4,224 nucleotides of DNA. Origin: a virus (taxonomy: Duplodnaviria > Heunggongvirae > Uroviricota > Caudoviricetes). Both the position numbers and the translations under genes were made by a program. The notes below the pieces were generated by a model that was not told the origin of the DNA, made no database searches, and worked only from the letters and a program-made list of their open reading frames with translations. Location of the stretch: IMG/VR virus record IMGVR_UViG_2654587570_000007. One strand, given 5' to 3'. Numbering within the stretch: position 1 is the first letter of the stretch; every line of letters starts with the position of its first letter. Below are positions 1-4,122 of this stretch, in pieces.

Positions 1-81
1 GTAGCTGAACAGGAGGGACAGCTGATAGAAACAGAAGCCACTGGAGCACCTCAAAAACACCATCATACACTAAATCAGTAA
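1..81 (+). CDS. 3' end of an upstream ORF (C-terminal 26 codons, product unknown); open from the window edge to TAA at 79-81
   Basis: Frame 1 is the only + frame open at the window start; it translates to VAEQEGQLIETEATGAPQKHHHTLNQ then stop. It is in the same frame as the 136..1059 ORF. Too short to assign a product; a holin C-terminus is possible but unsupported. Confidence 0.3.
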   Translation, partial: VAEQEGQLIETEATGAPQKHHHTLNQ

Positions 82-135
82 GTTGGCAGCATCACCAAAG
101 AGATAAATAATTACCCGGATAAGATTGCTGTTACT

Positions 136-1725: not shown

Positions 1726-1764
1726 AAAACCCCGTTTGTTGGCTGCAAGCGGGGTTTTGTGTTT
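1726..1764 (+). terminator. Intrinsic (rho-independent) terminator-like hairpin between R and Rz, possibly bidirectional
   Basis: 13-bp stem aaaaccccgtttg / caagcggggtttt (one G-U pair), 7-nt loop ttggctg, GC-rich core, followed by T-tract ttttgtgttt. A-tract on the 5' side gives a U-tract on the opposite strand too. Confidence 0.6.
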
Positions 1765-1794
1765 CCTGACTCTGGAAAAGTCAAAGGAGAAAGT

Positions 1795-1932
1795 GTGTTT
1801 GATTTTAGCAAACTGATTCGGGAGATTCGAGTGATGGCTGAAAAATTATCCACCTGGAAGTTCATTCTTATCTGGCTGGTGTTTGTGATTATGGCCTCCG
1901 GTTATTTCATCGGTCAGATACGCTGGTGGTGA
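1795..1932 (+). CDS. Small single-pass membrane protein (45 aa from GTG 1795, or 32 aa from ATG 1834) between endolysin and spanins; candidate lysis accessory
   Basis: Not in the ORF track (below 60 aa). AAGGAG at 1784-1789 lies 5 nt before GTG 1795; alternative ATG 1834 has GGAG at 1821-1824. Product MFDFSKLIREIRVMAEKLSTWKFILIWLVFVIMASGYFIGQIRWW has one hydrophobic helix (FILIWLVFVIMASGYFIG). Stop TGA 1930-1932 is one base from the Rz ATG at 1934, suggesting translational coupling. Confidence 0.45.
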   Translation: MFDFSKLIREIRVMAEKLSTWKFILIWLVFVIMASGYFIGQIRWW

Positions 1933-1933
1933 A

Positions 1934-2401
1934 ATGAACCGCGTACTGTGCGTGGTCATCATTGCCCTGCTGGTGGCCTGTGGTGCGCTTAGTCTGGGGC
2001 TGAATCATTACCGTGATAACGCCATAACCTACAAAGAGCAGCGCGATAAAAAAGTCAGTGAGCTGGAGCAGGCAAATGCAACCATTACTGATATGCAGCA
2101 GCGCCAGCGTGATGTTGCTGCACTTGATGCCAGATACTCGAGGGAATTAGCCGATGCGAGAGCTGAAAATGAAACTCTTCGCGCTGACGTTGCCGCTGGT
2201 CGTAAGCGCCTGCGGATCAACGCCACCTGTCCAGGCTCCGTGCGTGAAGCCCCCACCACCTCCGGCGTGGATAATGCAACCGGCCCCCAACTGGCAGACA
2301 CCGTTACACGGGATTATTTCACCCTCAGAGAGCGGCTGATGACGATGCACAAGCAACTGGAAGGGGCACAGGACTATATCCGCACTCAGTGCCTGAAATA
2401 A
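1934..2401 (+). CDS. Rz: i-spanin Rz (inner-membrane spanin subunit)
   Basis: 155 aa. N-terminal TMD VLCVVIIALLVACGALSLGL followed by a charged coiled-coil-like periplasmic domain. Strong similarity by memory to lambda Rz (NHYRDNAITYK, AITDMQ, RQRDVAALDA, DYFTLRERL, MxKQLEG). Confidence 0.93.
   Translation: MNRVLCVVIIALLVACGALSLGLNHYRDNAITYKEQRDKKVSELEQANATITDMQQRQRDVAALDARYSRELADARAENETLRADVAAGRKRLRINATCPGSVREAPTTSGVDNATGPQLADTVTRDYFTLRERLMTMHKQLEGAQDYIRTQCLK
2154..2339 (+). CDS. Rz1: o-spanin Rz1 (outer-membrane lipoprotein), fully embedded in the +1 frame of Rz
   Basis: 61 aa. Signal peptide with lipobox LVVSAC (Cys20), then CVKPPPPPAWIMQP and WQTPLHGIISPSE, matching lambda Rz1 by memory. 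SD-like GAGGG about 9 nt upstream of ATG 2154. Confidence 0.85.
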   Translation: MRELKMKLFALTLPLVVSACGSTPPVQAPCVKPPPPPAWIMQPAPNWQTPLHGIISPSESG

Positions 2402-2751
2402 GTTTTGTTGATGCGCCGTATCGTCGCTGTATTCCCTCATTAACAGAGACCGCAGCCCGACAGGGAGACTCCTCTGCGCGAGTGTGCGGGGATAATCAAA
2501 AACGATACACACCGGGGTTTACCGCGTTAACGGAGCGCGGCGTTGTCCCCTCATAGTCGCCTGTCCGGTGCGATGGTGGAAGAAGCCGGATGTTTATCAC
2601 TATTAATTGATGACACAGAAATGGATTCATTGAATTTCAGCACGTTTTTGTATTCGTGTTATTGAACATCTGTTTATTTTACTTTTAACATATTGATAAT
2701 AAAAAGAGCTGTAAATCTTTAGATGAGTCGATTTTGTCCGGGGAAGTTCAA

Positions 2752-2889
2752 ATGGATTTTATGCTGACGGTTTCTGGTGTGGTTATCCTGTCCATTGCTT
2801 ATACTGCAGATAAATATGGCTGCCATTTGTTATCACGTATTGGCGCTTATTGTTCGTTGATGCTGATTTTCTCGTCGCTTTTTTTTTGA
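2752..2889 (+). CDS. Possible small hydrophobic protein (45 aa) in the AT-rich island; speculative
   Basis: ATG 2752 is preceded by GGGGAAG (2740-2746) with a 5-nt spacer. Product MDFMLTVSGVVILSIAYTADKYGCHLLSRIGAYCSLMLIFSSLFF. AT-rich promoter-like sequence upstream, e.g. TTGAAC at 2662-2667 then 18 bp then TAACAT. Short, in low-complexity DNA, no homolog recalled. Confidence 0.25.
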   Translation: MDFMLTVSGVVILSIAYTADKYGCHLLSRIGAYCSLMLIFSSLFF

Positions 2890-3025
2890 GTAAGTTATAT
2901 TAATTATAACAAATAATTTTCTGTGTTATTTTTTCAGGCTATCCCGTCAGAGGGGAAGCCTGTACTGCCGGGGAGCGAATGGAAAACTGATGTGTCCGGT
3001 AACTGCGTGTTCTGTGAACACCATG

Positions 3026-3211
3026 TTACTTAATTATGTAATTCATACCCGAACTCTCTGTTGACAGCCTTCTTCTGCAGGCTTCAATAACCCACGCTGA
3101 AAAGTTTCCTGAACCTTTCAGATCAAGAGCGATGTTAATTTGTTCAATCATCTGGTTTGGAAATCGGATGTTGCGGGTTGTTGTTCTGCGGGTTCTGTTC
3201 TTTGATGACAT
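3026..3211 (-). CDS. Small ribbon-helix-helix (Arc/MetJ-like) DNA-binding protein, YlcI/YnfO-like (DUF3950 with conserved NFS motif)
   Basis: 61-aa minus-strand ORF. Pattern RNIRFPNQMIEQINIALDLKGSGNFSAWVIEACRRRL fits beta-strand plus two helices; NFS motif present. SD-like GGGGAAA upstream of the ATG on the minus strand. Family assignment is from memory. Confidence 0.65.
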   Translation of the reverse strand: MSSKNRTRRTTTRNIRFPNQMIEQINIALDLKGSGNFSAWVIEACRRRLSTESSGMNYIIK

Positions 3212-3387
3212 AATGTTTCCCCATATTCAGTGTTGCTGATTTGTATTATCTGAAGTTGCTTTTACGTTAATTTGACGCAGATCAATTAATACGATACCTG
3301 CGTCATAATTGATTATTTCTCGTGGTTTGATGGCGTACACACATGTTGTGATAAACCTTATATAGATGATAATTATTATCATTTCGT

Positions 3388-3394
3388 GGGTCCT
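3388..3394. other. cosQ-like element (gggtcct), about 24 bp upstream of the cosN nick
   Basis: Position and sequence match my recollection of the lambda right end (gggtcctttccgg, then gatccgac and ggttacg). Surrounding sequence from about 3226 onward is near-identical to the lambda right-end region as recalled. Confidence 0.5.
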
Positions 3395-3417
3395 TTCCGG
3401 CGATCCGACCGGTTACG

Positions 3418-3612: not shown

Positions 3613-4122
3613 GTGGCTACGCAGACTGAAGTTGCCAGGCATTTGAGTCTGACCGATCGCCAGCTTCGCAGATTGCAGAAATTGCCGGGTGCTCCGGTCT
3701 CGAATAAGCGAGGACAACTGGATCTGGATGCCTGGCGTGATTTTTACATATCGTATCTGAGGAGAAGTAAAAACGATGTGCCTGATGGCGATAGCGAAGA
3801 CGACTATGAAGAAAAGTTACTCATTGCCAGATGGAAGTTGATCGAAGAACAGGCAATCGCCCAGCAATTAAAAAATCAGGCGTCCGAAGGAAAGCTTATT
3901 GACACCGGATTCTGTATTTTTGCCCTCAGTAAGCTGGCAATGGCGTTATCCAGTACGCTTGATTCCATCCCTTTATCCATGCAGCGACAGTTTCCTGATT
4001 TAACACCGCGCCATCTTGACCATCTGAAAACCCTTATTGCGAAGGGGGCAAATCAGTGTGCGCGGGCAGGGGATAAATTACCGGATTTACTCGATGAATA
4101 TATCAGAGCAACAACTGAATAA
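3613..4122 (+). CDS. nu1: Terminase small subunit (Nu1-like, DNA packaging protein)
   Basis: 169 aa. C-terminal half aligns closely by memory with lambda Nu1 (GFCIFALSKLA, LDSIPLSMQRQFPDLTPRHLD, LPDLLDEYI). N-terminal winged-HTH region is diverged. GTG start at 3613 is preceded by an in-frame stop and a G-rich SD. Confidence 0.92.
   Translation: MATQTEVARHLSLTDRQLRRLQKLPGAPVSNKRGQLDLDAWRDFYISYLRRSKNDVPDGDSEDDYEEKLLIARWKLIEEQAIAQQLKNQASEGKLIDTGFCIFALSKLAMALSSTLDSIPLSMQRQFPDLTPRHLDHLKTLIAKGANQCARAGDKLPDLLDEYIRATTE

Follow-up and report, generated by a model that had tools for sequence, protein, structure and literature searches.

The moron concept describes DNA that is extra in comparison with close relatives, occupies a defined position in a phage genome, deviates from its surroundings in base composition, has a promoter and a terminator to itself and is expressed while the prophage is repressed (Juhala et al., 2000; definition as in PMC3594210). 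A described example is gp15 of phage HK97, a YebO-related small inner-membrane protein of superinfection exclusion, which is a moron and is expressed from the prophage (PMC3594210). Small prophage membrane proteins such as this one have been found to control phage entry. Prophage intergenic regions of pathogenic Escherichia coli also encode many Hfq-bound small RNAs (sRNAs) (PMC4104026), and the Pas sRNAs (bioRxiv 10.64898/2026.05.13.724894) as well as the EcOnc/anti-sRNAs (PMC4104026) map either ahead of the holin gene or inside structural operons. Here we analyze a 4,224-nucleotide stretch of a Caudoviricetes virus (IMG/VR record IMGVR_UViG_2654587570_000007), the whole of which is hereafter called the window. 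It is a lambdoid prophage late region, and our subject is the interval 2402-3025 between the spanin gene Rz and a YlcI/YnfO-family gene (ynfO below) near cos, in which an AT-rich optional cassette carries a small open reading frame (sORF) of 45 amino acids (aa). Our favoured reading, which we hold with moderate confidence, is that 2589-3000 is a moron-type cargo cassette and that its payload is an orphan small membrane protein of 45 or 46 aa. The coordinates of all features are collected in Table 1.

The first-pass annotation of this DNA, made from its letters, had divided the interval into a GC-rich and an AT-rich segment, noted that it held neither an ORF of at least 60 aa in a sensible context nor a Bor-like ORF, and proposed that the whole was horizontally acquired cargo. 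The compositional division is borne out, with a GC content of 0.575 at 2402-2580 and 0.324 at 2580-2940, against 0.467 in the whole window. The AT-rich segment is the compositional minimum of the window, since the lowest-GC stretch of 361 nt begins at 2573, and its most AT-rich sub-parts are 2589-2751 (GC 0.29) and 2890-2934 (GC 0.13). Likewise, no plus-strand ORF of at least 60 aa overlaps 2402-3025, where the sole long ORF, 121 aa on the minus strand (2147-2512), is mostly antisense to Rz; nor does this interval contain an ORF resembling Bor in size (about 97 aa), lipoprotein signal or homology to the lambda protein. A Pfam scan of three plus-strand ORFs of the region (55, 45 and 36 aa) gave no match. 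The proposal of acquired cargo stands for one part of the interval and fails for the other: as judged from sequence comparison, the interval is made of two distinct parts that divide at about 2589, with phage backbone on the left and an optional cassette on the right.

The left part, segment A, recurs at 94-99% identity in 138 phage records, for the most part of Shiga toxin (Stx)-converting phages, and likewise in about 1900 records of E. coli. It occurs with or without the cassette, most of the records that bear it being without the AT-rich part, and in VT1-Sakai it continues directly into the cos region. On these comparisons, segment A is lambdoid/Stx-phage backbone and not cargo. An ORF at 2389-2556 in this segment matches phrog_6954, labelled 'Rz-like spanin', at 1.4e-16. 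Its coding status is doubtful because its stop codon is polymorphic (TAG in the window, TGG in O157-type alleles), its start is variable and one allele has a 13-nt deletion; we therefore do not count it among the established genes, and the spanin label looks like an annotation artefact. In some prophages, the counterpart of this ORF (for example at 1407-1655 of L115; L numbers are our handles for individual loci) has 82 aa, its start lying within the 3' end of Rz but in a different frame.

The right part is present, absent or replaced at a single nucleotide position. A search with 2402-3400 recovered prophages in which segment A and ynfO are adjacent, and comparison with such relatives, which the first-pass annotation had suggested, showed the cassette to be absent from EC958 and replaced in the O111:H8 strain 08-4347. 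In EC958 the empty junction reads GGTGGAAGA-AACCG-AACGTTCA, and the stop codon of ynfO follows 14 nt past segment A. In strain 08-4347 a TonB-family lipoprotein gene occupies exactly the same nucleotide and is flanked by perfect AACCG repeats; its product (WP_000828070.1; L114, 1839-2165) has 108 aa and a lipoprotein-like N-terminus, MKRNLPLIILLSSLVMGC. Among 5426 complete E. coli genomes, the sORF cassette was found in 734 (about 13%, or about one in seven) and the TonB-family cassette in 417. The complete genomes hold 788 copies of the sORF cassette. The strains bearing it include O157:H7, O104:H4 (for example 2011C-3493), O55:H7, O111 and O145, strain 2014C-3061 is 100% identical to the window over 2402-3025, and the cassette is present in 2 phage records only. 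Together with the direct junction in VT1-Sakai, the empty site of EC958 and the alternative cargo of O111:H8 reveal extra DNA at a defined position, and the base composition of this DNA is deviant, with a GC content of 0.36 versus 0.58 in segment A, 0.55 in Rz and 0.47 in the window. As aligned, 2589-3000 is an optional add-on at a fixed and recurrent point of lambdoid prophages, which we take as its insertion point: on one side is the conserved segment downstream of the spanin genes, on the other the stop codon of the ylcI/ynfO-type gene near cos.

Further loci illustrate how this slot is used. The sORF and TonB-family cassettes have about 65 nt in common at their right ends (alignment score 11, versus 3.3 +/- 1.5 in shuffles, P 0.0005), and no similarity was found between their left ends. 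The assignment of 3001-3025 to the end of ynfO was obtained by alignment to EC958 and O111. In phage 434, the opposite strand carries a bor/iss-like gene in the space that separates the spanins from the DUF3950 gene, and bor has the same location in lambda and, as borD, in DLP12. Segment A stands to the left of the sORF cassette in every locus that reaches far enough, and three contexts occur on its right: lambda-type Nu1/A, an HNH gene with another terminase, and a truncated terS. In L008 and L009 (440-927), the cassette passes, near window position 3000, into the C-terminal half of a terminase small subunit (phrog_641, profile positions 86-162 of 162), which is accompanied by a split large subunit; this indicates a prophage that is rearranged and probably defective. 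An ORF does start at 2965-3000 in L008, but it is only the small-subunit half fused to the cassette, and the idea that a further gene begins in 2965-3000 was accordingly rejected. The slot of E. coli OkiPb01712 (L115, 1690-2595) holds about 0.9 kb without an annotated gene and with minus-strand ORFs of 63 and 79 aa only, and in the canine E. coli isolate Eco_23-3511 (H126) the region is interrupted by an element of the IS3 family of insertion sequences (IS), whose transposase has an AL1L pseudoknot feature. Terminal inverted repeats like those of a miniature inverted-repeat transposable element were considered at 2593-2621 and 2899-2929; their relative order is wrong and they are not kept in the SHP24 allele described below, and we regard them as chance matches.

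The candidate payload is the sORF at 2752-2889, which the first-pass annotation had correctly recorded as led by a Shine-Dalgarno (SD) sequence; this reads GGGGAAG and lies 5 nt upstream of the ATG. A TTG at 2734 is an alternative start that would give 51 aa. The NCBI annotation (PGAP/RefSeq) lists its product as a hypothetical protein, WP_000347012.1 (45 aa) and, for the commoner allele with eight T residues, WP_000347013.1 (46 aa). Pattern scans retrieved about 160 loci, of which about 100 are on viral contigs and 59 in metagenomes. Almost all of these keep an intact frame; one viral locus (L023) has a frameshifting insertion. These loci fall into three lineages, i.e., the main one, the L007 type (91% protein identity) and the SHP24 type (81% DNA and 71% protein identity). 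The signals for translation are retained across them. In 7 loci GTG replaces ATG, whereby a start codon is kept, and the SD core GGGGAA is preserved in the window, SHP24 and L007 lineages and in nearly all alleles; the metagenomic allele L177 has the weaker GGGTTA instead. Apart from L023, 123 nt of the sORF contain no indels, in contrast to several in the flanks, and otherwise length varies only in the terminal T-run. The C-terminal half, LLSRIGAYC.L.LIFSSLFF, is nearly invariant. A minus-strand ORF at 2630-2496 (44 aa) was discarded as a gene since its ATG is lost in the SHP24 allele.

The T-run at the 3' end of the sORF has eight T residues in 83 loci, nine in 14 and six or seven in 4, and database proteins include a tail of the ten-T type. 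These variants affect the final residues only (...LFF, ...LFFE, ...LFLSKLY and ...LFFFLSKLY), so the resulting products, 44 to 51 aa long, are alike except for the C-terminal tail. Because assemblies break at this run, many of the protein's database entries are marked 'partial'.

Substitution patterns point in the same direction with less force. The Nei-Gojobori ratio of nonsynonymous to synonymous substitution rates (dN/dS) between the sORF and its SHP24 counterpart is 0.31. When changes between lineages and polymorphisms are pooled, about 20 are synonymous and 22 nonsynonymous, against an expectation of 32% synonymous (P 0.03), and the replacements tend to keep hydropathy (P 0.07). Across 46 unique alleles, 22% of the sites vary in the sORF and 18% in the upstream block 2621-2712, compared with 41-58% elsewhere. 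Taken together, the sORF is likely to be coding and translated, though this falls short of proof and the synonymous excess is modest. The first-pass annotation had suggested frame conservation and synonymous substitution as a check; the frame is kept in nearly all loci, and for the latter the pooled comparison is favourable and the main pairwise one, given below, unremarkable.

The block 2621-2712 is conserved to the same extent as the sORF. Its immediate flanks, 2592-2620 and 2713-2751, are variable at 41-45% of sites, and it is 80-93% identical to its counterpart in the diverged SHP24 allele, compared with 57-67% in the flanks. From its conservation and position, the block probably holds the promoter of the sORF. 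A plus-strand sigma-70 candidate, TTGAAC-18 nt-TAACAT, was read in it directly from the sequence, below the 9/12 threshold of our promoter scan, and its -10 element overlaps that of a divergent minus-strand candidate, TTTACA-17 nt-TATGTT.

As for the product, AlphaFold with a shallow alignment predicts two helices, at residues 3-22 and 24-43 (predicted local distance difference test score, pLDDT, 74), and the hydropathy profile has two hydrophobic segments with DKYGCHLLSR between them. Neither a lipobox nor a signal peptide was detected, and Foldseek searches of PDB and BFVD gave no match. In PHROGs there was a single weak match (E 0.046), from the SHP24 allele only, to a family with unknown function. 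A full hidden Markov model search of 1.84 billion representative proteins yielded no true homologue, and a word-indexed search with two scans of species-representative genomes yielded none outside Escherichia; three genome matches to a 22-mer were dismissed as chance occurrences in AT-rich metagenome-assembled genomes. Our best reading is that the product is an Escherichia-restricted prophage orphan and a predicted small membrane protein.

These observations can be assembled into a working model. Since the sORF is encoded on the late-operon strand and no site resembling a terminator separates it from Rz, it would be transcribed during lytic growth as part of the Q-antiterminated late transcript. 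The block 2621-2712 most likely supplies a promoter and regulatory sites that would also permit expression from the repressed prophage. The product would fold into a hairpin of two helices within the inner membrane, with its basic loop (K21, H25, R29) facing the cytoplasm. Its role may be at the cell envelope of the lysogen, where it could block the entry of other phages or modulate a membrane protein, instead of an essential phage function. By analogy, such an envelope role appears the most likely one because the other cargo of the slot is a Bor/Iss-type or TonB-domain lipoprotein and because HK97 gp15 offers a precedent. A bolder version, which we hold to be unlikely, would make the peptide an unrecognised effector expressed from the repressed prophage, for instance in superinfection exclusion or in modulating a membrane protein, and the slot a single nucleotide position at which unrelated envelope cargo is swapped through shared ends.

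Several results weigh against the favoured reading, and some of them would be expected if the cassette were non-coding, i.e., an AT-rich regulatory or spacer region or a decayed remnant in which the block 2621-2712 is the conserved feature and the 45-aa ORF a chance frame. In the main pairwise comparison, permuting the changes under the observed 18:6 transition bias yields P 0.28 for so small a number of amino-acid changes and P 0.69 for an uninterrupted frame, meaning that about 69% of random mutation sets leave it open; by this measure, to take the dN/dS of 0.31 as strong coding evidence would be an overstatement. Within the main lineage, the density of polymorphisms in the sORF is not below that of its flanks, and the statistical power to detect coding is low because there are just three shallow lineages. 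The promoter-like hexamers to which the first-pass annotation had drawn attention occur at chance level (2 sites, versus 2.8 +/- 1.7 in shuffles), and the best plus-strand candidate matches at just 8 of 12 positions. No canonical intrinsic terminator, that is, a hairpin with a U tract, was found 3' of the sORF. A literature search on the peptide sequence and the RefSeq accessions returned nothing and no expression data, and comparison of the protein with Pfam, NCBIfam and PADLOC returned no match that could serve as a functional handle. The lack of homologues beyond Escherichia also suits a chance frame. On the other hand, the frame is open in nearly all of about 160 loci and in all three lineages, with indels in its flanks and none inside except in the one frameshifted locus; the SD sequence is retained, a start codon is kept through ATG-to-GTG changes, there is the pooled synonymous excess, and the hydrophobic two-segment pattern persists even at 71% protein identity. 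We consider a non-coding cassette unlikely, though the leading alternative.

Other explanations accept a gene product and differ on its nature. A late-expressed lysis accessory, such as a modulator of holin or spanin timing, would be made from the late operon only and serve the phage and not the lysogen. The sORF does lie on the strand of Rz/Rz1, immediately downstream of them and with no terminator-like site between, and other small single-helix ORFs, for example that at 1759-1932, are found in these lysis cassettes. However, the sORF is optional, as close relatives with the same lysis genes lack it or carry the TonB-family gene; its composition is unlike that of the lysis genes, and a strongly conserved upstream block would be unnecessary for read-through expression. 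Holins typically end in a charged hydrophilic C-terminal tail, but the sORF product ends in LFF or LFFE without a charged tail and has no holin match in Pfam or PHROGs. We consider this explanation improbable. Even less probable in our judgement is an arrangement like that of type I toxin-antitoxin systems, in which the peptide would be a membrane toxin and an antisense RNA from the minus-strand promoter candidate would overlap its mRNA at the 5' end, on the model of tisB/istR-1. Such an arrangement would agree with a small hydrophobic peptide and with the fact that the best consensus promoter of the region is on the minus strand, its -10 element overlapping that of the plus-strand candidate; the predicted starts, about 2698 (plus) and 2680 (minus), would give a 5' overlap of about 18 nt, and nowhere is the cassette more conserved than in the block that holds both candidates. 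Yet promoter matches come at the frequency of chance, and a minus-strand RNA would have no terminator-like site and fold no better than shuffles (z +0.6 to +1.4), with no conserved ORF and no terminator downstream on that strand. No toxin or antitoxin family was matched in PADLOC, Pfam or Rfam. Most type I toxins do not consist of two hydrophobic segments without a polar tail, as the sORF peptide does. Lastly, a trans-acting sRNA encoded in the AT-rich segment would have the many Hfq-bound sRNAs of prophage intergenic regions in pathogenic E. coli as company (PMC4104026; Pas sRNA preprint). The published sRNAs of enterohaemorrhagic and enteropathogenic E. coli prophages were nevertheless rejected as the payload, for they have other locations, either between PR' and the holin gene or in structural operons, and Rfam 15, which includes AgvB, AsxR, Esr41 and STnc100, has no match to 2402-3025 at E up to 1. 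GC-rich hairpins with a U tract are absent from both strands of 2589-3000. The hairpins past the sORF stop are an AU-only one followed by T6 (2911-2934), a GC one that lacks a U tract (2935-2962) and, as the only terminator-like site of the region, a weak plus-strand one (3007-3021), and the T-run at 2879-2887 is not a canonical terminator because no stem precedes it. Although the folding of 2885-3030 is better than that of shuffled sequence (z -2.6 for the plus and -3.2 for the minus strand), its hairpins show no covariation, and the folding energy of the conserved block is no better than that of shuffles. Of the two payloads that the first-pass annotation had offered, a small protein is thus retained, moderately as far as substitution statistics go, while an sRNA appears highly improbable.

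The neighbouring genes are those of a lambdoid late region. The left edge of the window is an IS1-type end, and annotated plasmid matches to it fall under 'IS1-like element IS1B family transposase'; the late region of the prophage is thus broken at a point upstream of the DUF1327 ORF. A strong intrinsic-terminator-like hairpin is situated within the lysis cassette at 1726-1758, between the lysozyme gene and the small ORF preceding Rz. It has 14 pairs, AAAACCCCG...CGGGGTTTT, followed by GTGTTT; an A-run upstream and a T-run downstream suggest that it is possibly bidirectional, and in Rfam it has only a sub-threshold match to the rimP leader, on the minus strand. The small ORF itself has 57 aa from a GTG or 32 aa from the ATG at 1834, encodes one hydrophobic helix and directly abuts the Rz start; in related prophages its counterpart is annotated as a hypothetical protein of 43 aa. 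On the far side of the cassette, the ynfO gene was assigned to its family by NCBIfam NF041551 (9e-9) and Pfam PF13132 (9e-19).

Table 1. Positions of the features discussed, in window coordinates
Feature	Position	Strand	Remarks
IS1-type insertion sequence end	1-96		match continues to ~120; in >5000 plasmid records, >13,000 places
DUF1327 ORF	136-1059
Lysozyme gene	1102-1635
Small single-helix ORF	1759-1932		phrog_6632 match at 1.4e-29; phrog function unknown
Rz	1934-2401
Rz1	2154-2339		embedded in Rz
Segment A	2402-2588		GC-rich conserved backbone downstream of Rz
Left flanking pentamer AGCCG	2584-2588		AACCG in other alleles
Optional cassette	2589-3000	plus	412 bp, GC 0.36; between segment A and ynfO 3' end
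Conserved block	2621-2712		92 nt; 40-130 nt upstream of sORF start; probable promoter/operator region
Candidate sigma-70 promoter TTGAAC-18 nt-TAACAT	2662-2691	plus	8/12 matches; within conserved block
Candidate divergent promoter TTTACA-17 nt-TATGTT	2715-2687	minus	9/12 matches
Shine-Dalgarno GGGGAAG	2740-2746	plus	5 nt upstream of sORF ATG
sORF	2752-2889	plus	ATG start; 45 aa, MDFMLTVSGVVILSIAYTADKYGCHLLSRIGAYCSLMLIFSSLFF
T9 homopolymer	2879-2887	plus	sORF 3' end; includes T of TGA stop
Right-hand segment common to TonB cassette	2931-3000		contains hairpin 2935-2962
Right flanking pentamer AACTG and ynfO-like sequence	3001-3025	minus	aligns to 3' coding end/stop region of longer YnfO variants
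YlcI/YnfO family gene (DUF3950)	3211-3026	minus	convergent with sORF
Nu1-type small terminase gene	3613-4122		at right end of window, with lambda-like cos region and large terminase gene start

If the peptide is made, the cassette would add a new, uncharacterised small membrane protein to the accessory genes of many pathogenic E. coli lineages. The locus is also a precise and recurrent cargo slot near cos, and its states (empty, sORF or TonB-domain lipoprotein) can be typed from sequence. The general understanding of lambdoid phages is unchanged by these findings, which concern a known phenomenon with an uncharacterised payload, whose sORF was already annotated as a hypothetical protein.

Set beside known systems, the locus shares parts with each of them. 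With the type I toxins of tisB/istR-1 and zorO/orzO it has in common a small hydrophobic peptide and candidate overlapping divergent promoters upstream; it differs in having no recognisable antisense RNA gene or family match and in the two hydrophobic segments of its product. The TonB-family cassette of O111/O145-type prophages is the nearest in position, being inserted at the same nucleotide on the same strand, with the shared right end and a similar frequency, whereas its left end is dissimilar and its cargo, a longer lipoprotein-like protein, is unrelated. The bor/iss-type gene of lambda and 434, and borD of DLP12, occupies the same slot from the spanins to the DUF3950 gene and is likewise optional cargo for a small envelope protein. 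Bor, however, is an outer-membrane lipoprotein of about 97 aa encoded on the opposite strand, and the 45-aa sORF product, from the late-operon strand, has no sequence relation to it. HK97 gp15 lies in the tail operon and is unrelated in sequence, the sORF product having no Pfam match, YebO included; a role in exclusion would be assigned to it by analogy only. Still, gp15 resembles the predicted sORF product in being a small inner-membrane protein from an add-on of deviant composition in a lambdoid phage, and provides the functional precedent for the proposed role.

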